Assembly: GCA_964016885.1 (NCBI GenBank) | Contig: OZ024747.1 | Coordinates: 81,220,001-81,284,000 of the forward strand | DNA length: 64,000 nt | Direction: 5' to 3' | Source: Eledone cirrhosa | Lineage: Eukaryota | In this document: in pieces, positions 705-63,610 of the stretch | How the letters are laid out: every line of letters starts with the position of its first letter | How positions within the stretch are numbered: the stretch's first letter is position 1 | Translations under genes and position numbers: made by a program | Notes under the pieces: generated by a model | Told to the model about the DNA's origin: nothing | The model's input: only the letters and a program-made list of their open reading frames with translations | Database searches by the model: none

Positions 705-2568
705 TCTTTATATATATAAAAGCGAGGATGTGTGTGTGTCTGTGTACAATTTTGCATACTTAAGGTTTTTACAATTACCAATTGAATTTGACCAAATTTT
801 CTGTACAGGTTGCACAGGTCGCTAAGATTGTCACATCACAAACATTTTTCAAATCGATCCACGTTGAGCAATAAAAAATCGATATCAAAATTATGGGTAG
901 AAAAATTGATGTAAGGGAGATAACAAACTTTATTGACAATCCTTATAAAAAAGGGAGATAACCAACTTTTCAGAAATATAAACATCACATTCATTTGAAG
1001 ATAAATCACTAATATTATCGTTTGTTTCTTGTTTATTCTTTGTTGCACTTTCAAAGTTAAAAAAACACTTGTTGTTTTAACTTTTTTCACTATATTAAGT
1101 GTTAATTTTCACGTTAAGGGCCTAATCTCGCAGCAGTCTCGAATTGACGAGATTTTGATGATGGTTTGTTTATTTTTAGAACAATCGTTATGGGACTTTC
1201 CATTCAAACCATTGGGACCTACAACTTTTACATTTTTAAAACTTTCATAAGCCATGTTGATACAAAAAAAAAATTTGTTGCACTTTCAAAGTCAACCGTA
1301 ACGCTTCAATTCATACATTTTGACGTTACAACTTTTCACCAAATATGCCCCGTAAAAGAAACTATGCACATATTGGATATCGGTCGAAGAAAACAATGCT
1401 TGTAAATGACGCTCCGCCGATAAGCGAAAATAGACAATCACTAAATGCGGTGATTGCAACATCTTTGTCCGCCGCTGAGCGTCGGTTAGTGCGGCGAATC
1501 AATAATGTTGCAGCAACTGCTGCAGCACAAGCTGCAGAGACTACAGAGCAATGTGAAACATGCCTTGCTATGGATGCTACAGATACTGCTGCAGCAAGAT
1601 CTGCAGAGACAGTACAAAAATATGAAAGACGCCGTGCACGTAATGCTTCAGCTAATGTTGCAGCAAGAGTAATTGAGACTGAGCAAGCACGCTCACGATG
1701 GTACCTTGAGGCAGTTAATTATGACCCTAATGTAAACTATCAAATCCATCCTGATATTCAAATATATGCCATGTCAAATACTTGCCAACATTGTAAAGCT
1801 AAAAAGTGTGTGCGTGGGGGGGGGGGGGGGAATCAGCTGGAATGTGCTGCTCCAACGGTAAGGTTAAATTTCCCACCCTTAGGGAACCACCGCAACCTCT
1901 CCAGATGCTTCTAACAGGTAAGCATTCACAATCACGTGATTTTCTGAAGCATATCTGACAGTACAACATTGCGTTTAAAATGACCTCTTTCGGTGCAAAA
2001 CGTCTGCTCACGAGTTGGCAGTTGAGATCTCTTTGGGTTTGTTCCGAAAAGAAAAACAAAAAATATCGTCTATCCTGAAGTGCTTTAGTGTTAACAAAAA
2101 ACTTATTACACCTCTGCCTTGACTTTACCTTACTCATTACAAAACATACCAATGAATATGTCATGCAGGATATTTTGGATTATAAGTTAAAAATTTAACC
2201 ATACACAGCAAAGGATGCTCTCAAAGAATAGATTTTCTCTTATTCTACTCTCATTGTTTTTTTTGTTTGTATATAACTCTGCTTTCATTAGAACTTTTTG
2301 TACTTTAGCAAAACTGCCTGTTTTTTTACAGATATGCAACGCGTATTGTTTTTAATCATTTGTATAACTACATCCTGTTCAGTGTTTTCCTTCATTATCA
2401 ACATAGTTTTATGTGTACAAAGATTGCACTAAATATTCGTTTGCATTAATTATTGAAGACTACTGCTTATTTTGACAGGTTGGGACAAATAATGTTCTTC
2501 TTTTACTTCCTAGCTGTATATTTTTAGCATAATTTCAAACCCCGAGCAACGCCGGGTAAATCTGCTAG
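705..2568 (+). mobile_element. Helitron, internally deleted and non-autonomous, retaining the 5' part of RepHel
   Basis: 5' A|TC end; 3' hairpin CCCGAGCAACGCCGGG followed by CTAG|T. Disrupted coding remnant CQHCKAKK...ESAGMCCSNGKVKFPTLREPPQPLQMLLTG...I*QYNIAFKMTSFGA is typical of the RepHel N-terminal zinc-finger region. Confidence 0.88.
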
Positions 2569-2602
<34 letters not shown>

Positions 2603-2704
2603 TAATAGGAAAAGAGTCAGGACCCCAACAGCTGAGCTCCAGCCATTTCAACAGCTACATCCAAACTAACCTCAGCTGTCGGGGTCCCAACTCTTTTCCT
2701 ATTA
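2603..2704. repeat. Imperfect 34-bp inverted repeat within a dispersed repeat (related sequence at ~58480-58580)
   Basis: taataggaaaagagtcaggaccccaacagctgag pairs with ctcagctgtcggggtcccaactcttttcctatta. Confidence 0.7.
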
Positions 2705-2920
2705 CCCACTCTACTACCCTAAGTATCGACTACTCTGGTGTGTTATGGTCCACCTGGTATCTTACCACACTTTCTTTGTTAGTTATATATATATATATAT
2801 ATAGAAAAATATGCATACATATATATATAAATATACACACTAATACATAAATATATATATATAAATATACACACACAGATACATACATATAAATATACAC
2901 ACACATACATACATATATAT

Positions 2921-3070
2921 ATTAGAAATAGAAGCTTTCACTGTATTTTTGACTAAAGATACTTTAGCCTGATAAAACATGGAAAAAAGATGAGTATTGA
3001 CATACATGGGAGTTGAACCCACATCTTTGGTTATCCAGTCAGAAATGCAGCAAAAGCTTCTATTTCTAAT
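2921..3070. repeat. Fold-back element with ~34-bp inverted arms
   Basis: attagaaatagaagcttt (2921-2938) pairs with aaagcttctatttctaat (3053-3070); the arms extend inward with ~4 mismatches. Confidence 0.7.
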
Positions 3071-7683: not shown

Positions 7684-7972
7684 CCATTGCTGATACTATC
7701 TACTGGTCGCAACTCCTGGCAGAAAGAGCAACGTGAAATAAAGTGTCTTGCTCAAGGACAGAACACATCAACCAGTGTGAGAATTGAACTCACAACCTCA
7801 TGATTGCAAATCCAACTCTCCATTGCTGATACTATCTACTGGTCACAACTCCTAGCAGAAAGAGCAATGTGAAATAAAGTGTCTTGTTCAAGGACAGAAT
7901 GCATCACCCAGTGTGAGAATTGAACTCCCAACCTCACGATTGCAAATCCAACTCTCTAACCACTAAGCCACA
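7684..7972 (-). mobile_element. tRNA-derived SINE (second family) with a 136-bp tandem duplication
   Basis: Head TGGCTTAGTGGTTAG...GAGTTCAATTC and body gtccttgagcaagacactttatttcacgttgctc. Units 7684-7819 and 7820-7955 are near-identical. Confidence 0.8.
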
Positions 7973-14519: not shown

Positions 14520-17462
14520 CCTGGGTATGACATTAAACTACATCCAGTGGCAAGGCTCCAGTTCGGGAGTTCAGGAGCTGTGGGGAATGTGGAGTTACCC
14601 TTAGTTGTCATAACTCCCAGGTCTGCTCTGGCCCGGAGTAGTAGTACCTGTTAGGGCCCCATTTATGGGTTAAATAACTACCTTATTTGAGTGGCGCTGG
14701 TAAGGTATTGTCAGCCATTGAAAAGAAATATGGAGAGTCGATCTAACAGCACTAGGGTTAGAGCCCCTAATTACACTGTCAAGGAGAAATCTGGTCATTA
14801 TGACTCTGCTGGCTTAGAGCCACAGAGAGTGCCAGTAGATGATGGATCAGATGTCTCTGAGACAAATATAAAGAATGCAGTTTTGTCCTGCAGAAGAGCC
14901 ATCAAATTGGGCACTTTGAATGTGAGGACTATTCGGACGCTGGAGAAGAGAGAGGAGTTGGGACATCTGTTCGAGGAGAGTAGTATACAGATACTTGTGA
15001 TCCAAGAACACAGGATCCTACACGATGAGCCCGTGAGGAGTGTGATGATTGGGAAGAGGAGCCAGCTCATCACCAAATCGGCAGTGAGGAATATGACCAA
15101 TGCTGCAGTGGGAGGAGTGGGTTTTGTTTTCAGCACAGTCTATTGGTAAGGGAAATAATTCCTGTCTCCCCGTGAGTGTTGAGGGTAACCTTCAATGGAA
15201 ACCCAAGACTGACAGTCATCTCAGCCTATAGTCCAACCGAGGAAGACAGTGATGTGAGTGTGGAAGAGTTCCATGAGGAGGTGTGTAGAGTTGTCAACAC
15301 CACTCAAGCACACAAAATCCTGCTTGTTTTGAGGGACTTCAATGCATATGTGAATAAGGGGGGCAGTGAAGGTCCTTGCTTGTACTTCCATAACAACACT
15401 AACCGAAATGGAAGACTACTGAGAGACACCCTGCTGGAGGCGAACTTGATAGCGACCAACCTAAGGTTTAGGAAGATGTGGACCTACATCTCAGATATGC
15501 ACCTGTCCAAGTCCCAGATTGATTTCATTCTGGTGAGGAAAAAGTGGCGGAATAGTGTTCTGAACACAGAACCATACAACTATTTCAGTACACTGGGTAG
15601 TGACCACCGACTTGTTATGAGTGAGGTCCGGGTGAGCTTAAGAAAGAGCAAGGCTCAGCCCCGGAGAGCAATCTATGACTGGGGAGCTTTCAAGGAAGAT
15701 GATAAGCTACAGGAGAGGTTCACAGTGGAAGTGAGGAACAGGTTCACTGCTCTGTGTGGAGAAACAGAGGAGAGGAGATTGGATGGACTGGGGAGAGTGT
15801 GATGAGGAGGTACGGACACTTCACCAATGCAGTGGCGGAAGCAAGTGAAACCCTGGTGCCGAGGAAAAAGAACAAAAGAAAGCATGTCAGCTCTGCAAAC
15901 CCAAAAGTGTGTGCAGCCAGAGAACACCTGAAAGCTGCCAAGGACCAATTCTAAGCTGATCCTACGGAGGAGAGGATGGAGTCTGTGGAGGTGATGAGGG
16001 AAGAACTCTGTACCGCTTACACTGTGGCCAGAGAAGAGGCACTGATAGAGAAGATCAGAAGTGTGGAGAGGGCAGTTGACAGATTTGGATGTAAGGAGAG
16101 CTGGATGATCATCAACGAGATCACATGGAGGAAGAGAAGGTGTTCGAGTCAGATCCAGGGAATGGGGCACGAGGATAGGAAGAGGAAATGGCTAGACCAT
16201 TTTAGCACCCTACTAGGAGAGCCACCCTCCACAGCCCAGAGCACTGGGGAAATCAGGCGGCTGTTTGAGGAACTGGATATTGAGACAGCCTGAGATGGAG
16301 AAGAAGCTCAGGGACAACCAGAACGGCTTCAGAGAGGGAAGATCAACCACCAGTCACATCCTGATGCTGAGGAGGTTATTAGAGGGAGCTAGAGCAAAGT
16401 GCCTTCCTGCGGTCATGGTTTTCATTGACTTTAGGAAGGCCTTTGATTCTGTGGACCGTCACTGCCTGATGAAGATCTTACAGGCTTATAGAATCCCCAA
16501 GAGGATAGTGGACCTGATATCACTGCTCTACACCAACACCAAAGCCCAAGTTATTACACCTGATGGGATGACAGTTCTTTGAGATACTGGCTGGAGTGCT
16601 CCAGGGAGATACATTGGCTCCCTACCTTTTTATGATCGTAGTGGACTATTGTATGCGCCTTGCACTGGAGAAACACCAGGACCCTGGCTTTACTGTAGCA
16701 TTAGCTCAGAGCAGGAGAATTAAGGCGAAAAAGGTATCAGATGCTGAATTTGCCGACGACATAGTTTTGGTGACAAATACAGTGAAGGAGGCAGAGGATT
16801 TGATGCGGGAGGTTGAGACTGTGTCGATGAGTGTGGGGCTGAGAATGAATAAGACTAAAACAAAATATCTGGTGGAGAATGTTGAGAAGCCAGAGGGGAT
16901 CACTAATGTAGGCGGGAAGCTGCTAGAATTGGTTGAGGACTTCCTGTATTTGGGAGCAAAGATTGGGAATACGGAAGATGATGTGGTTGAGAGGAAGAGC
17001 AAAGCCTGGGCAGCGTGCCACAGCTTGACATCGGTGTGGAAGTCGGACCTTCGTAAAGACCTGAAAATCCGCCTCTTCATTGCTGTAGTGGAGTCTGTGC
17101 TGCTGTACGGGTCTGAGACTTGGACACTGAACAAGAAACTCACTCAGATGGTGGATGGGTGCTACACGAGGATCCTGGGGATGGCTCTGAACATTAATCA
17201 GTATACACTGAGGATGAAAAACACAGAGCTGTATGGGAGCCTCCCAAATGTCAGCTCAAAAGTGACAGAGTTGACCTTGCACTCAGTGCTCCTGTGGGAG
17301 CCCCTACATGGACACACTGGAAGAGGAGACCAAGGTTAACGTATGTTGATGCCCTGAGGACAGACACTGGTCTGTTGGATACGCAGGACATGGCAGCGAT
17401 AATGAAGGACAGAGACCGCTGGAGAGAACTCATCCATGGATCTTGAGAATTTTACAAGCCCT
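14520..17462 (+). mobile_element. Near full-length degenerate RTE-clade LINE (APE endonuclease plus RT)
   Basis: APE motifs GTLNVRT, IQEHR, ISAYSPT, DFN, QIDFIL, SDH. RT motifs QNGFR, FIDFRKAFDSV, QGDTLAP, FADD, FLYLG. Contains stops, frameshifts and an internal deletion near 16290; flanked by (TA)n. Confidence 0.92.
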
Positions 17463-17622
17463 AGATATATATATATATATAATATATATATAATATATAT
17501 ATATATATTATATATATAATATATATATATATAATATATATATATATAATATATATATATATATAATATATATATATATATAATATATATATATATAATA
17601 TAATATATATATATATAATATA

Positions 17623-17683
<61 letters not shown>

Positions 17684-17752
17684 TATAATATAGATATATA
17701 ATATATATATATAATATATATATAATATATATATAAATATATATATATATAT

Positions 17753-17785
<33 letters not shown>

Positions 17786-18168
17786 CTATATATATAATAT
17801 ATATATAATATATATATATATATAATATATATATAATATATATATATATAATATATATAATATATATATATATAAATATATATATATATAAATATATATG
17901 TAATATATATATATATATAATATATATATAATATATATGTAAAATATATATAATATATATGTAATATATATATATATAATATATATATATATAATATATA
18001 TGTAATATATATATATATATATATATAATATATATATATATATAATATATATGTAATATATATGTAATATATATATAATATATATATATATATAATATAT
18101 ATGTAATATATATATAATATATATGTAATATATATATGATATATATATATTACATATATTACATATAT
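17463..18168. repeat. Long degenerate (TA)n/(TAA) microsatellite; continues at 20752-21262 after the LINE insertion
   Basis: Directly visible. Confidence 0.95.
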
Positions 18169-20751
18169 ATGTTGCTTGGTGCTTTCGACAGTGAGGAGGA
18201 GCATCTGGAGTCGGACAGTGTGGAGGGACAGTGGAAATTTCTGAGGGCAAGCCTGCTGTTGGCGACAGACGAGGTCTGTGGCTGGAGCGGGCCTGTGGGC
18301 AGGGGGAGAGTGGCATGGTGGTGGAGCAGTGGGGTGGGGGGGTCAATTGGGGCCAAGGGGCGGGCTTGGAAGGTGTGGCGGGATGGGGGAGGTGGAGTGG
18401 ACTATCAGGTGGCCGGGGGGGAGGCTGGGAGAGGAGTGTACTTGGCAAGAGGGGAGGCTGGGGGGGGAAAGTTCAAGCGTGTTCTACAGCGCGATGACCA
18501 GGGGCGTGGGGTGTTCGGGATTGCCGGGCAGTGCGTCAAGGAGAGCCGTGATATTGTCGGGGAGAAGTGTGTGCTTGGCGATGATGGCATACTTGCCATC
18601 GCCGACACTGATAGGAGGGTGGCTTGGAAGTGTCACTGTGAAGGGCTGCTGAATGAGGAGAGTGAATGGGAGAAGGACGGTCTCCCCCATATCGACCCGA
18701 TAGAGGGACCAGCAGTGTTGGTCGAGGGGAGTATGATGGGTGGGGCAATCAAGGATATGAGGACTGGTGGGGCGGCTGGGCCTTCGGAAATGGTTGCTGA
18801 GATGCTGGGGGCATCTGGCACGGTGGGACACACCATGGTCACCCGCATAGTTAACCGGGTCGTGCAGAATGGGGTTGTTCCGAAGGACTGGCATGGCGGC
18901 ATCGTCGTTGACTGTTGTGAGGGTGAGGGGGACGCCCTAGATGGGAGTAACTATAGAGGCATTAAATTGATCGACCAGGTCATGAGGGTCACGGAGGGGG
19001 TGATGGCGCAACTGATCGGAGAGGGAGTTGATCTGGGTGAGATGCAGTTCGGGTTTGTGTCGGGCGGGGGCGCCACAGACGCTCTTTTCATGGTGCGACA
19101 ACTGCAGGAGAGGTGCCTGGCTAGGGGTGAACCCCTCTACTTGGCTTTTGTCGACCTGGAGAGGGCCTTCGACAGAGTCCCCCGCTCCATTGTCTGGTGG
19201 GCTCTTGGAAGGCTGGGCGTTGACGAATGGCTTGTGAGGGCTATGCAGGCCATGTGTGGGGGGACAGTCAGCAGGGTTGGAGTTGACAATGAGTATAGTG
19301 AGGAGTTTGGCGTGGGGGTTGGCGTCCATCGGGGCTCTGTTCTCAGCCCCCTACTGTTTGTTTATTATTGCCCTTCGGGCTGTGGCAGAGGAGTTCGGGA
19401 CAGGCTGCCCATGGGGGCTCCTGTGCGCGGACGGCCTGACACTCGTGGCGGAATCGATGGCCGAGCTGGAGAGGAGGTTCCAAACATGGAAGCGCGGCCT
19501 GGAGTCGGGGGGACTTAAGATTGGCCTGGCTGAGGCCGGGGTTCTGGTTTGTAGGAAGGAAAACAAGGCGGCGGTCCCTTCTGGGAAGTGGTCGTGCTCG
19601 GTGTGTAGGAGGGGCGTGGGTGGAAACTCCATCTTGTGTCCTAAATGCAAGGTGTGGGTGCATAGAGGATGTGGTGGGATCACAGGTAGGCTAACTAGGA
19701 GCATAGACTTTGCATGTGGCCGGTGTTCTGGTGCAGTGGGTGGCAGCGGGTGCCCACAAAATACTGGCTCTTTCGGTTGCGCAGAGGGTTCTATAGAAGT
19801 GGTGGACAGCTTCCGTTGCCTGGGCGATGGGGTCGGCAGTGGGGGAGGGTGCTCTGAAGGTACTGTGGCTGGAGTCGGAACTGGTTGGAGAGGGTTCAGA
19901 GAGCTTGTACCACTATTGGCTGCTAAAGGGTTCTCCCTAAAGATGAAGGGCAGGTTGTGCGATGCCTGCGTACGAGCAGCGATGTTGCATGGTAGTGGGA
20001 CCTGGGCATTGTGTGCAGAGGATATACGCAGACTGGAGAGGAACGAGGCTTGCATGCTCCGCTGGATGTGTAACGGTGATATACGTGAGCGGCAAAGCAT
20101 AGACGAGCTGAGGAGGAAATTGGAGATAAGAGGGATCAGATGTTGTTTGCTCGAGAGAGGGCTGCGTTGGTGTGGACACGTGATGCGCATGAGGGTCGAT
20201 AGCTGTATTACAAAGTGCAGGGCAATGGAGATGGACGGTGGCCACGGAATGGGCAGACCTAGAAAGACATGGGATGAGCTGATAAACTCCGACCTCACAC
20301 ACTTACACCTCTCCAAGACAATGTCACTGGACCGTGACCTTTGGCGGTGCTCAGTAACAGAGAAGACCCGCCTTGCCAGTAGGCATCTCTAACAAACTAC
20401 ACCCCGTCCCGCCACCACCCCCACCCCATCCACACCACCCCGTTCCATGTAAGGTTATGTTGGTGCCGCGCCATCCAGGCCGAAACAAACGAGATCGTGT
20501 AGGTGTCACGACAAAAAAACACACAGTCCACGCTGTAATGTGGCCGTGTAGGCAACACGGTAAAAACCTCCCAGACCCACACTGTAAATGTGGTTGGTGT
20601 TAGGAAGGGCATCCAACTGTAGAAAACCTGCCAGACAGTCCTATGCGAGCAAGACAATCACTCTTGCCTCAAGTGGGACTACCCCCGTCCAAACCCATGC
20701 AAGCGTGGAACACGGACGTTAAACGTTGATGATGATGATGATGATGATGAT
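18169..20751 (+). mobile_element. 5'-truncated RTE-clade LINE copy, A-to-G hypermutated
   Basis: RT motifs are recognisable but altered (NYRGIKL, QFGF, FVDLERAFDRV, HRGSVLSP, CADG, CLG). A 4-nt duplication causes a frameshift at ~19357. Ends in a 3' UTR and (GAT)n tail. Collinear with 42899-45460. Confidence 0.95.
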
Positions 20752-20790
20752 ATATATAATATATATGTAATATATATATAATATATATGT

Positions 20791-20821
<31 letters not shown>

Positions 20822-20824
20822 ATA

Positions 20825-20864
<40 letters not shown>

Positions 20865-20947
20865 TATATATAATATATATATGTAATATATATATAATAT
20901 ATATATATAATATATATATATATAATATATATATATATAATATATAT

Positions 20948-20991
<44 letters not shown>

Positions 20992-21028
20992 TATATATAA
21001 TATATATATATATAATATATATATATCT

Positions 21029-21067
<39 letters not shown>

Positions 21068-21265
21068 ATATATATATAATATATATTATATAATATATAA
21101 TATTATATAATATATAATATTATATAATATAATATATATATATATATTATATAATATATATATATATATATATTATATAATATTTAAATATAATATATAA
21201 TATATATATAATATTATATAACATATATATATATATAATATATATATATACAATATATATATAGT

Positions 21266-26915: not shown

Positions 26916-27230
26916 ATACACACCACCTCTTTCAATGTAAAGTTATGTTGGTACCACAACATCCAGCCCGAAATAAATGAGGTTGTGTAGGTGTCACGAC
27001 AAAAAAAACACACAGTCCACGCTGTAATGTGGCCATGTAGGTAACACGGTAAAACCTCCCAGTTCCACACTGTAAATGTGGTTGGTGTTAGGAAGGGCAT
27101 CCAGCCATAGAAAACCCGCCAGACAGTCCTATGCGAGCAAGACAACCACTCTTGCCTCAAGTGGGAAAACTCCCGTCCAAACCCATGCAAGCGTGGAATA
27201 TGGACGTTAAACGATGATGATGATGATGAT
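26916..27230 (+). mobile_element. RTE LINE 3' UTR copy with (GAT)n tail
   Basis: Aligns with ~20430-20751. Confidence 0.85.
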
Positions 27231-32309: not shown

Positions 32310-32613
32310 TATGTACACACATATACATGCTATGCTTTTGTCATTAAGATGTCTCAAAAAGTATCTTCTTTATATATATACACCAATCATTTCCAATGAT
32401 GAAAGTACTTTAAAGAACTTGCCTTAAGAAGTTATTACAGCAATCATTTTTAGTAATAACAATGAGTTTCAGTAGAAATGCAATCAGAAAACTTAATTAA
32501 ACTCTTTATGCCGACAATATTCCTTTCACCATATCTTAAAATGATTAAAACATTTGAAAACAGATAACTAATTATTCATATTAATTTTACCAAAACATGA
32601 TTAAAATTGTATA

Positions 32614-32829
32614 ATCATCATCATCATCATCATCATCGTTTAACGTCCGTGTTCCACGCTTGCATGGGTTTGGACGGGGGTAGTCCCACTTGAGGCAAGA
32701 GTGATTGTCTTGCTCGCATAGGACTGTCTGGCAGGTTTTCTACAGTTGGATGCCCTTCCTAACACCAACCACATTTACAGTGTGGGTCTGGGAGGTTTTT
32801 ACCGTGTTGCCTACACGGCCACATTACAT
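32614..32829 (-). mobile_element. Young 5'-truncated RTE 3' end with (GAT)n tail
   Basis: Essentially identical reverse complement of ~20535-20751. Confidence 0.9.
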
Positions 32830-42395: not shown

Positions 42396-42800
42396 ATCAT
42401 CATCATCATTTTAGGTCCGCTTTTCTCTGCTTGCAAGGGTTGGACGGGTCCTATTCAGCACAGCATCTCTCCACTTGTCACGGTCCTTCGTCATCTCCTC
42501 GGTGAGTTTCAGCGATCTGAGGTCTGCTCTCACCACCTCTGCCCATGTTTTATATGGTCTACTTCTTCTGTGTCTTCTTTCTACTGGGATTTCTTGGCAC
42601 TTCTTTACTCAGCGGTCATCCTCCATGCATCACAGGTCCATACCATCTCAGCCTTCTCTCCTGCACACCACATCTTATCCCTCTTATACCCAGTTTTTTT
42701 CTCAACTCGTCCATGCTTGGTCGTTCACGCACATTGACATTGCACATCCATCAGAGCATACTGGCTTCATTTCTCTCCAGCCGTCGCATATCCTCTATAT
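42396..42800 (-). mobile_element. RTE-clade LINE 3' fragment from a different subfamily
   Basis: Minus-strand remnant RRLERNEASML..MCNVNVRERPSMDELRKKLGIRGIRCGVQERRLRWYG; (GAT)n tail. Confidence 0.8.
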
Positions 42801-42898: not shown

Positions 42899-45460
42899 GG
42901 GTGTATTTTGTTAGAGATGCCTACTGACTGTAGTAGGTTTTACTTTGTATTTAGGTAAGGCGGGTCTTCTCTATTACTGAGTACCGCCAAAGGTCTCGGT
43001 CCAGTGACATTGTCTTGGTGAGGTGTAAGTGTGTGAGGTCGGAGTTTATCAGCTCGTCCCAGGTTTTTCTGGGTCTGCCTATTCCGTGGCTACCATCTAT
43101 CTTTATTGCCCTGCACTTTGTTATACAGCTATCGTCCTTCATGCGCATCACGTGACCATACCAACGTAGCCTTCTCTCGAGTAAACAACATCTGATCCCT
43201 CTTATTTCTAATTCTTTCCTTAGTTCGTTTATGCTTTGTCGTTCACGTATATTACTATTACACATCCAGCGGAGCATGCAAGCTTCGTTTCTCTCTAGTC
43301 TGCGTATATCCTCTGCACACAATGCCCAGGTCTCACTGCCATGCAACATTGCTATTCATATGCAGGCATCGTACAACCTGCCTTTCATTTTTAGGGACAA
43401 CCCTTTAGCGGCTAATAGTGGTATAAGCTCTCTGAACTTTTTCCACCCAGTTCTGACTCTAGCTACTGTACTTTCAGAGCACCCTCCCCCACTGCTGATT
43501 TTGTCACCCAGGTAACGGAAGCTGTCCACTATTTCTATAGAACCCTCTGCGCAGTTGAAAGAGCTAGTATTTTGTGAGCACTTGCTGCTACTTATTGCCC
43601 CAGAACACCGGCCACATGTAAAATCTATGTTCTTAGTTAGCTTACCTGTGATCCCACTACATCTTTTATGCACCCAAACTTTGCATTTGGGACACAAAAT
43701 GGAATTTCTACCTACGCCTTTCCTACACTCTGCGCATGGCCACTTCCCGGAAGGGACCGCCGCCTTATTTTCTTTCTTACAAACTAGAACTTTAGTCTTA
43801 GCCAGGTTAACTTTAAGGCCTTTTGATTCTAGGCCGTGCTTCCATGTTTGGAATTTCTTCTCTAGCTCGGCCATTGATTCAGCTATGAGCGTTAGATCAT
43901 CTGCGTATAGGAGTTCCCATGGGCAGCCGGTCTTGAACTCCACTGTTATAGCCTGGAGGGCAATAATAAATAGTAGGGGGCTAAGAACAGAGCCCTGATG
44001 AACACCAACTTTTACACTAAACTCTTCACTATATTCGTTGTTAATTCTAACCTTGCTGACTGTTTCTTTATACATGGCTTGTATAGCTCTCACAAGCCAT
44101 TCATCAACACCTAGTTTTCTAAGAGCCCACCAGATAATGGAACGGGGGACTCTGTCGAAGGCCTTCTCCAAGTCGACGAAAGCTAAGTATAGGGTTTACT
44201 TTTAGCTAGGTACTTCTCCTGTAGTTGTCGTACAATGAAAAGAGCGTCTGTGGTACTTTTTCCTGACACAAACCCGAACTGCATTTCATCTAGATCAATT
44301 CGCTCTCTGATTAGTTGCACTATTACTTTTTCCGTGACCTTCATGACCTGGTCGATTAATTTAATGCCTCTATAGTTACTCCTATCTAGGGCATCTCCTT
44401 TACCCTTATAACAGTTAACGATGATGCTGCTACGCCAGTCCTTCGGAACAACCCCATTCTGTATGACTTGGTTGACTATCCGGGTGACCATGGTGTGTCC
44501 CACCGCACCAGATGCCTTCAGCATCTCGGCAACTATTTCCGAAGGCCCAGCCGCCTTGCCTGCTTCATATCTTTGATTGCCTTACTGGTCCCTCTATTGG
44601 GTCGATGTGGAGAGACTGTCTTTCTCCCATTTATTCTCCTCATTTAGTAGCCTTTCATAGTGACACTTCCAAGCTACCTTCTTATCGGAGTCGGTGATGG
44701 CAAGTACGACGTCATCGTTAAGTACACACTTCTCCCCGACAATATCATTGTTTTCCTTGACACATTGCCTAGCAATCCTGAACACCTCACGTTTTTGGTC
44801 CTCATGTTGTAGAACATGCTTGAACTTTCTTTCCTCTGCTTCCCTTCTTGCGAAGTACACTTGTCTCCTAGCTTCCCTCCTGGCCACTTGATAGTCTTCT
44901 CTGCTTCCCCCATCCCGCCATACTTTCCAAGCCTGCTTTTTGGCCTTAATTGACCCCTCCACCTTACTGTTCCACCACCATGTTACTCTCCTCCTGCCTA
45001 CAGGCCTGCTCCAGCCACAGACTTCGTCTGCCGCCGTCAGCAGGTTTGCTTTCAGGAATTCCCACTGTTCCTCTACCTTGTACGACTCTAATTGCTCTTC
45101 CTTACTGTCAAAAGCATCAAGTAATATGCTTTGGAATTTATTTTTGGCTGTGGGGTCCTTTAGCTTCCATATTTTTCTCCTGAGGATAGTCCTCTTCTGT
45201 TGTCTAGTACGTCTCGTCCTGACTATTAGGTCGCTAATTATCAGTCTATGTTGGGAGGTGCATTCTTTATGGGGGAGGGATTTAGTGTTTACAACATTCA
45301 CTTTGTCACGTCTTCTGGTAAGGATATAATCTACCTGGCTGGTATGTTCCCCTGATCTGTAGGTGATCAAGTGATTGTCTCGTTTTTTGAAGTTAGTGTT
45401 GCAGATAGTTAGGTTATTTGCGTCGCAGAATTCTAGGATTCTGGAGCCTTCCTCATTTCT
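42899..45460 (-). mobile_element. 5'-truncated RTE-clade LINE with consensus-like sequence (partial APE, RT with embedded PHD-like finger)
   Basis: SQVDYIL, SQHRLII, NCYKGKGD, NYRGIKL, QFGF, EKAFDRV, HQGSVLSP, YADD and YLG are all intact; several indels. Confidence 0.95.
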
Positions 45461-45884: not shown

Positions 45885-46140
45885 CATGACGGAGAGGCGT
45901 CACAGAAAAAAGCACCCAGCACTCACTGTAAAGTGGATGTGTAGGTGCCATGGAAAAAAAGCACCTAGCACTAACTGTAAATGAGGTTGTTGTTAGGAAG
46001 AGCATCCAGCTGTAGAAATCAAGCCAGAATCAGTTCCCATATGAGCAAGACAAGATCAGCCGGACACTGCCCACAACAGGACAATCCGTCTAACCCATGC
46101 TAGCGTAGAAGAACGGACGTAAAACGGTGATGATGATGAT
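45885..46140 (+). mobile_element. RTE-type 3' tail element with (GAT)n
   Basis: Homologous to 63223-63480 (minus) and related to the 20500-20751 tail. Confidence 0.8.
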
Positions 46141-56027: not shown

Positions 56028-56470
56028 CACTATAAAGTGGTTGTGATGGTGATATGGCAAAAAGCACCCAGCCCACACTGTAAAGTGGTTGTGTAGGTTT
56101 TACCTGCAAAAAGCACCCAGTCCACACTGTAAAGTATTCGTCTATGGCAAAAGGGCCCCAGCCACACTGTAAAGTGGTCATGTAGGTGTCACACCAAAAA
56201 GCACCCAGTCCATACTGTAAAGTGTTCATCTATGGCAAAAGGGCCTCAGCCCACACTGTAAAGTGGCCATGTAGGTGCCACACCAAAAAGCACCCAGTCC
56301 ACACTCTAAATGTGGTTGGCGCTAAGAAAGGCATCCAGTTGTAGAAACCAAGCAAAGATCAGTTTTGTATGAGCATGACATGGTTACCTGACCTAGCATT
56401 GCTCACAACAGGATAACTCATCTAACCCACACCAGCAGGGAAATGAATGTTAAATGGTAATGATGATGAT
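56028..56470 (+). mobile_element. RTE-type 3' tail element with an expanded internal tandem array
   Basis: About 6 copies of caaaaagcacccagtccacactgtaaagtg, then the RTE tail and (GAT)n. Confidence 0.8.
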
Positions 56471-57848: not shown

Positions 57849-60800
57849 ATATATATTGAACTTTCAAAAGCCAGCTCTAGATACATAATCCTAGAATAAA
57901 CATTATTTATAAAGTTCTGAGCTTTAATCCGTCCATGGGGTATAATGTAAAGACACACGTGCTGCTTCATATCAATTCATCCAGATTCACTGCACAGAGA
58001 TAAAAACTTCTGTAATATTCCAGCAATTCAATGAACTATGTGAGTCACCTTACTTGAGGCATTTATTAAGTTACAAAGCATACTTTACAAATGTTTTTTC
58101 TATCCTATTTCGTGATGAATAAGACTCTGTTTTAGGAGGAGGGTGAATGCCAAGGTGGGTGGAGTATTTATGAAAGATGTAATGTTTATGCCTTTACCAA
58201 GAGCAATCTGAAAACAAGTGAATTGAATTAGCCTCTACTGGGAAATAAAATGGCATCACATGGTGCTTATGTTCTGTGATGTTCATTATGCTGTTTGATC
58301 ACAGTTTATCAATAATCATCATAAAATTATCAAAAGTTACAACATGAATATTGTTCACATGAAAGCTATCATTATCAGAGTGGAACAAGAAAAATGCAGA
58401 GTAATTACTGTAAGTTCACGATTATGATATACTGCAACTGAAAATATGTCAAATATATTATATATATATCAGAATGGAGGGGGTAAAAACCAGTTAGACC
58501 ATTACTCACAAGAGTACTCGATACTTGGGGTCAGATCTAACTGTTGAAACAGCTGGAGCTCAGCCAACAGGGTCCCAAATGTTTCATATACATATATATC
58601 CTAAGTCCCAGCATTGCTTTCCCACCATGGTTGACGTTAATAAAAGGAGTGCTATATCATGACAAAAAGCATCTAGTCGACCCTGTAGGGTGGTAGTAAC
58701 AGAGCCATGATAGAATATTTCCAATACATGCTGTAAAGTGGTTGTTGTTAGGAAGAGAGTCCAACTGTAGGAATCAAGCAAAACATAGTCACTTGACCAG
58801 TCTAGCTTCAGTATGTGTCAATCTATTTATCTCAAGGAAGCATAGAAGGTAAATGTTAAATGGTGATAATGGTTATGATGACCACAATATATAAATTTCT
58901 GTATCTTTCAAAAGAGTTATTATTAAGAAAAATATATTAATATTTCAGTTTGTTAATTTTATTTTGTCTGTGTCACAGTTGAAATAGTTTGATTTCTATG
59001 CATCACCAGATGCAATATTTCCTATGCTTTACATATATACACTTGTTCTAAGATTGAACTAATGAAGCTTTAGTTCATAAGGGAAAATACACATATTTAA
59101 CCTGTTAAACTCAAATAAAACTAAAGGGGAGTTGGGGTCCTATTGGTATGGGCCTATGATTTTGAGGACCCTTCTTACTTCACATTTTAGTTATTTTATT
59201 CTGTTATTTGTATGTACAGCATGTACATTATATGTAAATGTATATATCTGTAACCCATACATAAATCATATGCATTAAGGACTGATTACTAAAATGTTTA
59301 ATGATCAGTTTGGAATAGAGCCTACATTTATGACCAGCTTTGGACAGGCCTAATTACAATAATTATATTATTGACATTAGAATTGAAATTCATGAAGCTA
59401 GTTGCAATGGATGTTTGAACTCAGAATCAAGAAAATCAAAACTAAATACTGTGAAACGTTTAGTTAAGAAACACTCATTCTTCCACAATGAGAAACAATC
59501 CTATAAGACTTTTCATTTAGAAATCTTAACTAATGGTAGGAATATTAGTTGGTGATTTATGCTAAGTAAACTGAGTTCTAAATTAATGCTTCTTTTGTTT
59601 TCATGAGTTCCCAATGACTTTTCTTTGTCTATATTTCCAATGTTACATTACACATTTCCTCACCCTTTTTTTTACCTCAAGCAGGACTGATAAAACACAT
59701 CTTAGACAGGTTTTGAAATTTCTAACAGGATTGTTTTAGAGAAAAGTGAAATAGTATAATATATCATGAGTTAAGGTAAGACTGTGTGGTCTAGTTTTCT
59801 TTATAATTACATGAATTTCAGTTTAAACCTTTGGTGTAACATATTAGACAAGTGCTTTGACCAAAGCCTAGTAAGTGACATTTGGTGGACAGATATTCTG
59901 TAGAGAAGACCAACAGAGAAACCACTCATGCTTTTAGGTAGAAAGCTTACTCTATCACATGGTTAAAAACTGCCACCTAGCTCATAAATGCCTTTAGCAG
60001 ATGACAAAAGGTGACAGATACATTTATAGCAGAGGAAGAGAGTTAACTTAATCAGCATTAAGATATTATTACAATTATTCTATTGGCATTAGCAGGATAA
60101 AATGTAAAGGTGACCTCAGCAACAAAAATTGCTAAAATTAATTTCTGTGAAACATAAAGTCAAGAGATATAATACTGTAGCTATCTCCACAAAAGTAATA
60201 CCACTATCATCTTAAGACTTTACTTGGCACTACCACCTTTCCGTGCTGATAGGGTGCTTTTCAGCATGGCACCAGTAGGGTGTGCAGGTGCTTTATACTC
60301 TGGCACTAGCACTACCTCATTTCAATAGCAGAGTACTTGTGTCCTAATCCAGGCTGTAGAGGCAGTGATGGGAGGAGGGGTGTAGGGCGAGAGGGGTGGG
60401 CAAGCTACAAGTTAAGAGAGGGAGCCATCTCACCATGTGAGAGCAAGTGTTGGGTCTTGGTGGTGGTCTTGATGGAAGTGTGTTCTACATAGCCATATAT
60501 TGCTGCATGTATATAATAAATCATTTCAATAAATAGAAAATACAACCACAGCCACTGACATTAATGTGAGAATACCTGTAAAATAATTAGGTGAAGTCAA
60601 ACACTAGGTTTGTCAATTTTGTTTGTGTGTGTGTAAGCGCAGTAAATATATACATATATATACACCAGGTCCAAACACAAAGGAATCAAACTTCCCCTGT
60701 CACTACTGCTGTCTTTCTTTCTCCCCCCATCTCTCACTATTATGAGTAAATGGAGGCCCACGTGCTGGCTATCCTGCAGCTTCGGCGGACAGAATAGAGA

Positions 60801-62562
60801 AGGCATTTCCCCAGAGGATGGTGAGGGAGATGCGCTGGAAGAACCATTCCAGCTCGCGAGGCTCACATCTGTGGGTAGCCATCTCTGTACCGATGGTGGT
60901 GAGTGAGAAGGTGGCCCTAGGGCCAAGGACAGCAGAAGTCTCTCTGGTCTAAGACAACATCATTCCTTTCTTTTAGCAGTCTCAAAGATCATCAAAAGGG
61001 TCATGAAAGTCTGATCTTCCTTCTCTGACAAAGCCATTAAAAATATTTTAAAAAGTCATTGAGTGTAGATTTAGGAAGGAGGAGCTGCCTACAATATACG
61101 CAAAAGCAAAACTTCTTTCTAAAAAAACTGAGTTTAATGTGGTAAGTTCTTAGAATATCATGATCACAGGGAACTGTTCTGATTTATTACTGTGTTCTGA
61201 AATATCACTTATTATTGTTTGCATAACTCTCTCTCTCTCTCTCTATATATATATATCTATGTACACACACACGTGAATATGCACACACATGAAAGCATGT
61301 GTGTGAGTATGTCTGCAAGCATGTGCACTCACATACTTTTACAAGCATTATCTTTAACAAAAACCTCATTGAGAATTAGTTAAGAAATATCATTTCAGTA
61401 TGAGACAAAAAAAAAAACTAAAAAAAAAACTAGCAAAAACAAAATAAATAACAGAGCAGAGAAGGAATATGGTAAAAAATAAAACAATAAAAAACAAAAA
61501 AACATAAACAAATATGGAAAAAAATGCAAAGTCAGCTCTCAATCAACACAATTTTCATTATCTTGTAAATTGTTGTCATGATAAATTTCTAAAGTTGAAA
61601 TGTATGAGTCTTGAACACAGCAAAATGTTGCTTAGTTGGTTTCTGTATAAAAGGAAAATTCAACATTAATGTTACGAGTACTATTTTTTTTTTATTTTTC
61701 ATCAACCATTTTCCATTTGCTGATTTGTTTGTTTGTTCCTTCAGTTGTAATATTTCATATTAATGAAATGGAAATATTGTAACTATGAAACTTTTATAAA
61801 ATTGTATTTCAATAAAAGTAAAGTATAATAAGTATGATAATCATGATGCTGATGATGATTATGATATAAGGTGACAGATACATTTAGAGGAGAGGAGTAG
61901 ATTTGATTTAAGCAACATTTAAGACATTATTGCAATTATACTATTGGCATTAGTAGGATAAAATGTAAAATTGACTTAAGCAACAAGAATGTGAAAACTA
62001 ATTTCTATGAAACATTTATACAAGATATGTAATGTTACAGACATCTCCACAAATGTAATGATGATCATGGTAATGTCTGCACGGAAGATATATATATAAT
62101 ACATCCTTTATTTGTGAGACGTAGGAAACACTATGGTGAATGTTGTAGAGGTTGAATTGCGAAATAAGAGACAATAGCATGGTTATAGTAAATAGTAGAT
62201 CATTTATATGTGTAAGGAAAAAAAATACAGCCACTGAGGATACCTGTAAAATATATGTGGATGTTATACGTAAATGTAGTTTGAGTGATATTCTATATAA
62301 TCTGACTATCAAAGAACTACATACACACAGGCACACACAGCACACATACATGCATGAACATGCAAACACACACCCACAAGTATGTTCATACATGACAGCA
62401 AATGCAAAAAAGAATATGTCTGCTGATACAATTAAAATCATCTGAAGAAGACTAAAAGTATCATTGTAAGATACTATAACATCAAAAAAAACCTACAGGC
62501 ATCATGCTAATTGCTACTTGAATTAATCAGGTGTTTATATTTAGTTCCTTCTTGTTGTGTGT

Positions 62563-63049: not shown

Positions 63050-63222
63050 CATTATATATATATAATATACTTTATATATATATATATAATATATGTATAT
63101 CTCCATATATATATCTATATATATATATATAATATACATTATATATATATATCTATATATATATATAATATACATTATATATATATATATAATATACATT
63201 ATATATATATAATATACTTTAT
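62563..63222. repeat. Degenerate (TA)n/tacattatata microsatellite; continues at 63612-64000
   Basis: Directly visible. Confidence 0.95.
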
Positions 63223-63610
63223 ATCATCATCATCACCGTTTTACGTCCGTTCTTCCACGCTAGCATGGGTTAGACGGGTTGTCCTGTTGTGGGCAGTGTC
63301 TGGTCGGCTGACGATGCCTTGCTCATACAGGAACTAATCTGGCTTGATTTCTACAGCTGGATGCCCTTCCTAACACCAACCTCATTTACAGTGAGTGCTG
63401 GGTGCTTTTTCGTGGCGCCTACACGTCCACTTTACAGTGTGGGCTGGGTGCTTTTTTTGCCGTGGCACCTCCACGACCACCTTGCGGTGGGGGGAGTGCG
63501 GGCATATTGTTTATATGCTTCAGCATGTACCCATGGGAGGTCGGGTACCCTGTATTACTGCGTGACGCCAGAAGTCACGGTCGTGTGTCATTGTCTTTGA
63601 GAGGTGTAGT
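63223..63610 (-). mobile_element. RTE-type 3' tail element inserted in (TA)n
   Basis: (CAT)n then cgttttacgtccgttcttccacgctagcatgggttagacgg; homologous to 45885-46140. Confidence 0.82.

Follow-up and report, generated by a model that had tools for sequence, protein, structure and literature searches.

A>G hypermutated copies of a LINE in an octopod genome carry the neighbour signature of ADAR editing

Retroelements that were hypermutated by a deaminase and still integrated have been described among APOBEC-edited endogenous retroviruses (Knisbacher and Levanon, PMC4866542), and the octopod LINE copies reported here most likely share this property with them. According to the available portion of that paper, the retroviral copies are also strand-biased and motif-bearing, with hundreds of sites per copy and wrecked reading frames. 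However, they result from G>A changes, through cytidine deamination of cDNA, in vertebrate LTR elements, whereas the changes here are A>G, follow the ADAR rule and affect an invertebrate LINE. LINEs were left out of that screen, and the same portion of the paper describes other mismatch clusters as negligible and invertebrates as being at noise level. A>G-hypermutated retroviruses have also been cited, namely RAV-1, avian leukosis virus and HTLV-2/STLV-3 (PMC8586724, available in part). In these, as is proposed here, A>G hyper-editing of RNA was carried through reverse transcription. Those viruses are exogenous, however, and their hypermutation was seen in culture or rarely, whereas the copies described here are chromosomal, belong to a host LINE and recur within its family. 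Hyper-edited animal repeat RNA obeys the same rule and forms dense clusters in repeat dsRNA (PMC4365171; for cephalopods PMC9068888; both in part), but there the edits are confined to RNA and here they stand in the genome sequence. In human cells, the accessible text of PMC5224506 states that ADAR1 left ectopic L1 RNA unedited and that restriction of L1 was independent of editing. ADAR would meet the LINE RNA or particle in both cases, without L1 edits there and with massive editing here. Restraint of retrotransposons through ADAR editing has been proposed for cephalopods (PMC9068888, in part), while the test on human L1 showed no editing. For one mouse provirus, ADAR was considered and rejected on context (PMC12548423, in part), and A>G enrichment was found in RNA traces and not in DNA traces (PMC2873906, in part). 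The available parts of the papers on cephalopod editing (PMC9068888) and on an octopus RTE element (PMC9115989) mention no edited genomic copies. No report of ADAR-hyperedited LINE copies in a genome was found in the literature searched, which was screened by title and start of abstract with most subscription papers outside its scope, and this is not proof of novelty.

The window analysed here is a stretch of 64,000 nt (C7:81220001-81284000) of a 3.0-Gb assembly, and its features are listed in Table 1. The LINE copy in it has (TA)n on both sides, where a target-site duplication was unreadable. Inspection of junctions showed that 5′ truncation varies among copies of this LINE and that they end in a simple-repeat 3′ tail. 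In the sibling copy L236 (3781-7149), a single frame of 1122 aa comprised an endonuclease (PF03372/PF14529), an RT (PF00078) and a PHD finger (PF00628), the last immediately after the RT domain. Having endonuclease and RT in one frame, in this sibling, the element is an APE-type non-LTR retrotransposon. Judged by architecture and tail, the family is probably RTE-like. In the available parts of PMC9115989 and PMC6007223, RTE-2_OV of Octopus vulgaris likewise has one long endonuclease and RT frame (1109 aa, against 1122 aa here), and RTE-clade LINEs have a microsatellite-like 3′ tail, as does the octopod LINE.

Table 1. Coordinates of the LINE copy, its surroundings in the window and the two antisense-edited fragments found elsewhere in the assembly.
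Feature	Position	Strand	Description
5′-truncated non-LTR retrotransposon (LINE) copy	18169-20751	+	RT and PHD-finger coding region, 3′ UTR, (GAT)n tail; Pfam RVT_1, PHD; end-to-end alignment with young siblings
A>G hypermutated tract	18171-20453	+	265/725 As; dense until ~20260, then only 20266, 20349, 20453
Interval of the initial annotation	19141-19356	+	28 edited sites inside
Stretch matched by read contigs	18259-18586	+	48 edited sites; 328-nt contig in runs X1 and X2
RT catalytic motif	19424-19435	+	CADG in window copy, YADD in sibling L010
4-nt insertion relative to sister and siblings	19355-19358	+	reading frame shifted; alignment blocks
Unedited element 3′ end	20491-20727	+	0/73 As changed in 20491-20725
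(GAT)n tail	20728-20751	+	sequence
Upstream (TA)n flank, unconverted	17470-18168	.	TGT 8 vs TAT 259
Downstream (TA)n flank, unconverted	20752-21260	.	TGT 3 vs TAT 187
Sister of the initial annotation: older inverted relative	42903-45127	-	82% identical to window copy; without A>G or T>C excess
L137 fragment	C2:391.94 Mb locus, 1450-2044	antisense-edited	internal, 595 nt, tailless
L142 fragment	C3:106.93 Mb locus, 1059-1752	antisense-edited	internal, 694 nt, tailless

A similarity search with 19000-19500 returned 3789 candidates. Of these, 40 were scored and gave 30 loci, comprising the window copy, a second copy (L002) and 28 young siblings that differed from one of their number (L005) by 9-27 positions over 1.8-2.4 kb. 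L006 and L007 look like a single duplicated locus. At least 15 siblings covered 2584 sites, from which 12 polymorphic ones were removed. Over the remaining 2572 sites the window copy differed from the young siblings by 265 A>G, with 2 T>C and a single C>T besides; G>A was absent, and with it any APOBEC-type sense-strand change at sibling-agreed sites. Since the 28 sibling loci carry A and other differences are few, the change ran from A to G and the window copy is very young.

The initial annotation had used as ancestor the sister copy (45127-42903, - strand). This copy differs from L005 at 115 of 1982 sites; it is an older relative and was rejected as ancestor. In full alignment with it, the window copy showed 266 A>G and 8 of the reverse change, besides 33 T>C and 21 C>T. 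The counts that had been drawn from the sister in 19141-19356, 2 of 15 As converted where G preceded and 11 of 16 where T did, were nevertheless exact (Fisher p = 0.003), and they held when the young siblings replaced it (1/14 and 11/15, respectively). The remaining classes against the sister were 14/19 after A and 1/10 after C. The clustered conversion of A-runs was also confirmed, as both quoted run conversions are present in the alignment.

The proposed neighbour rule extended over the whole copy. Outside the interval first considered, 16 of 170 As after G were converted against 86 of 145 after T, with the young siblings as reference (p = 8e-22). Across 18171-20453, and leaving out two As beside polymorphic sites, conversion reached 61% after T (97/160), 52% after A (120/232), 21% after C (31/147) and 9% after G (17/184; p = 1.5e-29). 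The 3′ base mattered as well: 115/227 As were converted before G, 81/232 before A, 34/131 before C and 34/132 before T (p = 3.7e-7). G was depleted at -1 and enriched at +1; among trinucleotides, TAG (39/52, 75%) and AAG (53/75) stood at the top and GAC (2/39) at the bottom. AA pairs became AG 68 times and GA 29 times. No effect was found at positions -4, +2, +3 and +4, and only a weak one at -2 (p = 0.04) and -3 (p = 0.02). Hyper-edited sites are known to be depleted of G upstream and enriched in it downstream (PMC4365171), and the same ADAR 5′ rule is given in PMC8586724, in the available part of each. A T>C excess on the same strand, equal to the A>G excess, was not seen (2 against 265). 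Edits fell on every codon position (86/261, 70/233 and 108/214) and changed the residue in 149 of 739 codons, with the RT motif YADD becoming CADG; selection at synonymous sites was thus not the cause. Local RNA folding of the sibling L010 was rejected as a determinant of the sites: edited As leaned, at most, towards being unpaired (0.73 vs 0.65), a difference mostly gone within the 5′ classes.

A single transition on a single strand, in ADAR context and with siblings carrying A, supports the preference of the initial annotation for ADAR over GC-biased conversion or RT error, and the signature points to ADAR as the enzyme. Retrotransposons do pass through an error-prone RT step in their cycle, and misincorporation under dNTP imbalance could be imagined there, as could GC-biased gene conversion of the locus or its descent from a G-rich subfamily. 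We find all three hardly credible. Biased conversion should also have produced T>C, A>C and T>G, of which 2, 0 and 0 were seen. A G-rich subfamily should have left progeny, but among the 643 copies matching an all-R motif at 19613-19633, G at 19622 occurred in just two, the window copy and L002, and the latter has a different edit set. The antisense fragments described below weigh further against RT error and biased conversion.

Editing was confined to the element. The first edit (18171) lies 2 nt from the 5′ junction, and editing was fairly even up to 20260 (mild overdispersion, p = 0.03) before falling to 3 of 65 As in 20261-20490 and to none beyond 20490 (Table 1). The LINE lying 700 nt upstream showed no A>G excess relative to 11 of its siblings (A>G 5-15 vs G>A 9-25). 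As the flanks and this neighbour are unaffected, the change belongs to the element sequence and not to the chromosome region. Regional hypermutation was ruled out on the clean flanks, the neighbouring LINE and a short 3′ copy at 32610-32828. The 4-nt insertion in the window copy repeats a unit that itself holds an edited base, and suggests slippage during or after copying of edited RNA.

Further edited copies were recovered by exact degenerate motif scans of the assembly in which G was required at one ADAR-favoured site. DNA-similarity searches with edited queries found few of them (1/29 and 0/29 other loci). Since motif scans overlook copies with another mismatch, such as L104 (G at 19867, not matched), the counts of edited copies are lower bounds. 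Requiring G at 19207 gave three matches, of which only the window copy was edited; at 19867 two of six matches were edited, and at 20047 seven of 27 had an A>G excess, with one locus unscored owing to too small an overlap. At 19622, the only site for which all matching copies were counted, the edited share of copies was, as a rough figure, at least about 0.3% (2/643).

Excess was scored against the nearest relative among 177 projected loci and was present in six further copies (p = 1e-11 or lower in each). A>G made up 78 of 87 differences in L002 (contig C3), 67/72 in L077 (C1199), 68/112 in L104 (C3), 28/38 in L103 (C2), 53/106 in L108 (C4) and 52/120 in L102 (C2), while the window copy lies on C7. 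L102 and L108 are older and show ordinary decay alongside the excess. None of 56 unselected young loci had an excess. With the six copies pooled, the edited share of As by 5′ base was 39/414 (G), 52/431 (C), 146/622 (A) and 109/424 (T); the rule was weaker in L002 (four-class p = 0.07; G vs T/A p = 0.013). Their 3′ ends were spared too: the last 230 nt of the seven A>G copies had 7 of 450 As edited, against 116 of 552 at 19990-20260 in the six further copies. All seven had a (GAT)n tail, that of L108 being 7 nt short of the counting cut-off and visible in the junction sequence. L002 and the window copy had 39 edits in common, with 34 predicted by context (p = 0.10). For L077 the figure was 31, against 24.4 predicted by trinucleotide context (p = 0.003), only two of them at cold sites, and this surplus is unexplained. 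The edit sets differ, and the six copies are independent of the window copy. C1199 (L078-L080) is a 22-kb unplaced contig with seven LINE pieces in both orientations, the sole edited piece being at the contig end.

T>C hypermutation was found by a mirror scan with C at the antisense counterpart of two palindromic sites. It gave 61 and 27 matches, all of which were examined, and two of these 88 were T>C hypermutated: this change made up 67 of 76 differences in L137 and 57 of 61 in L142. With the antisense strand as the frame of reference, the As converted were 37/55 after T, 9/25 after A, 10/54 after C and 1/20 after G in L142 (p = 2e-8), and 31/45, 15/25, 17/45 and 4/19, respectively, in L137 (p = 9e-4). 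The rule is thus mirrored exactly on the antisense strand, as neither RT error nor biased conversion would have it. Both fragments have a microsatellite on each side and lack the LINE 3′ end, which was reached by 97 of 110 unedited scan matches vs 0 of 2 T>C copies (p = 0.017). The edited strand tracked the tail state, with a tail in 7/7 A>G and 0/2 T>C copies (p = 0.028). These copies show that both strands were editing substrates, as expected of a sense-antisense duplex. Plain sense-strand retrotransposition does not predict T>C copies, and an extra step is needed. Tailless insertion is a known route, represented by tailless retropseudogenes (PMC5322556, in part); for edited antisense LINE fragments, the literature searched yielded no instance of such capture.

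The microsatellite at 1753-3022 of the L142 locus, on the side of the RNA's would-be 5′ part, is C-interrupted (ACA 137, TGT 1) and matches the T>C polarity, and the other flank is not C-interrupted (ACA 5, TGT 13). The copying that produced the L142 fragment may thus have taken in edited (UA)n RNA as well. All microsatellites near L137 are G-interrupted, so the flank pattern of L142 may be ordinary. L161, L162, L167 and L171 are unedited internal fragments without the whole 3′ end, and could be deletions or unedited tailless captures.

The edited copy was also sought in DNA reads. Runs X1 and X2 are of one sample with an unrecorded library, possibly the assembly's own. Each yielded a contig over the stretch given in Table 1, with 2 other letters and at a depth of 34 and 29, respectively. 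Against a summed depth of tens or hundreds of thousands for the LINE family, these values resemble those of a single copy among many hundreds. A residual depth of 27 (X1) and 20 (X2) at 19907 carried the G of the window copy, and 0.19 (X1) and 0.18 (X2) of its sampled words were present, with 0.03 expected from unedited copies. Three of 30 bins were empty in both runs, no contig crossed a junction, and contigs covering 18943 and 19331 had A throughout in X1 and X2; read contigs drop rare variants, and such gaps in their coverage prove nothing. The RAD runs X4 and X5, which barely covered the tract, showed no sign of the edited copy. A 48-site pattern at single-copy-like depth in two runs means that the tract is not just an assembly error, and there is a real template for part of the window copy (18259-18586), the rest being unconfirmed.

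It is accordingly quite improbable that the edited copies are an artefact of assembly, produced by edited RNA reads or systematic base-calling error in the consensus. Such an origin would be compatible with read support for part of one copy only, from an unrecorded library, and with the terminal position of one edited copy on an unplaced contig of 22 kb. However, hyper-edited RNA molecules differ from one another, and only a fixed template would give two runs the same pattern in a 328-nt contig at a depth of about 30. Eight of the nine edited copies are internal to contigs of chromosome scale, where each has distinct flanks and junctions of its own, and the 56 unselected young loci have no excess. 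The clustered error described in the available part of PMC2873906 is G>A, not A>G.

The inverted sister, 22 kb away, was unsupported as pairing partner of the window copy: in 28 nt that it lacks, 4 of 9 As were edited (4.3 expected), and would-be A.C mismatches with it were edited at 7 of 15 positions (5.2 expected). Nor was there significant support for inverted neighbours as general partners. They lay within 10 kb of 4/8 edited and 4/20 unedited loci (p = 0.17; L077, where the contig ends, left out), and editing in L137, L142 and L103 did not track pairing with inverted neighbours of 75-77% identity. The even, dense editing would fit a near-perfect duplex with RNA of another young copy.

These results also bear on whether the copies could have been inserted unedited and rewritten afterwards at their site, through conversion of the locus by cDNA from an edited transcript or through ADAR deamination of DNA paired with RNA in a hybrid. 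ADAR can act on such hybrids. Rewriting would explain A>G and T>C copies alike without antisense capture, the T>C copies giving it its best footing. An inverted relative lies 2-3 kb from each T>C fragment, and the match of the window copy with its own inverted relative ends near the point where editing fades. Against this, inverted relatives are not significantly more frequent near edited loci, editing does not follow pairing with the neighbours and proceeds where the sister has a gap, and the strand goes with the tail state. The 3′ end is spared, moreover, though related 3′ sequence is the most abundant by read depth. We regard rewriting in place as unlikely.

We suggest instead, with a probability of roughly 0.84, that duplex LINE RNA was hyper-edited by ADAR and then reverse-transcribed into the genome, with occasional tailless capture of the antisense strand. 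This reading is built on the observed spectrum, context, direction, limits at the element ends, recurrence and strand-tail pattern, and on the ADAR genes that the assembly contains. RNA transcribed from a young LINE family with many copies would pair, between molecules, with near-perfect antisense RNA from the same family along more than 2 kb, and ADAR would turn about a third of its adenosines into inosine. Target-primed reverse transcription, presumably in the germline, would start at the unedited 3′ end of the edited RNA and into a (TA)n site. Inosine would template C, so that the new DNA copy carries G, and the 5′ truncation would arise where synthesis halted within the edited tract. Since damage to the edited frame is severe, the enzyme was probably supplied in trans by unedited RNA or had already been translated when editing took place. 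The process would recur, and occasionally a piece of the edited antisense strand would be captured without a tail.

ADAR deaminase exons (PF02137) were found mainly at three loci, on C6, C1 and C25. The C6 exon is 95% identical to ADAR2 of Octopus vulgaris and about 70% identical to gastropod and vertebrate ADAR2, and by this similarity the host is an octopod with an ADAR2-type gene. Its dsRNA-binding domains were not found within the 9 kb examined.

Normally temporary RNA edits have thus most likely become DNA, through the copying of edited RNA back into the chromosome, which would be a concrete case of such conversion in the very lineage whose RNA editing is most celebrated. The edited genomic copies would form a fossil record of the encounter between ADAR and retrotransposons in DNA-transmitting cells, and assemblies alone suffice to count and date them and to compare species. 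Each would be the ADAR footprint of a single molecule, extending over as much as 2.3 kb, and the lack of editing at the 3′ end may mark what the LINE enzyme needs or shields. Since their genomic G resembles an edit, these copies will confuse RNA-editing calls in repeats. More tentatively, octopod ADAR and LINE RT could together constitute a standing germline route from RNA to DNA that accepts either strand of a hyper-edited duplex, tailless antisense pieces included. Such a route would extend beyond the sense RNA of the LINE itself, and may turn edits in the RNA of other repeats and of host genes into heritable G alleles.

Other repeats were present in the window. A second, different LINE occupies 14690-17460, with endonuclease and RT remnants; it is about 96-97% identical to its own siblings, has thousands of candidate copies genome-wide and shows no A>G enrichment. 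Short relatives of the 3′ part of the edited LINE lie at 32610-32828, 26916-27230, 42477-42796, 45895-46140 and 63204-63483, and the last 250 nt of this LINE also occur in a far more abundant SINE-like family (read depth >2 million). A direct repeat (60001-60199 and 61861-62059) is 80% identical over 200 nt. Tandem repeats were found at 7684-7956 (136 nt) and at 56053-56310 (90-nt units).
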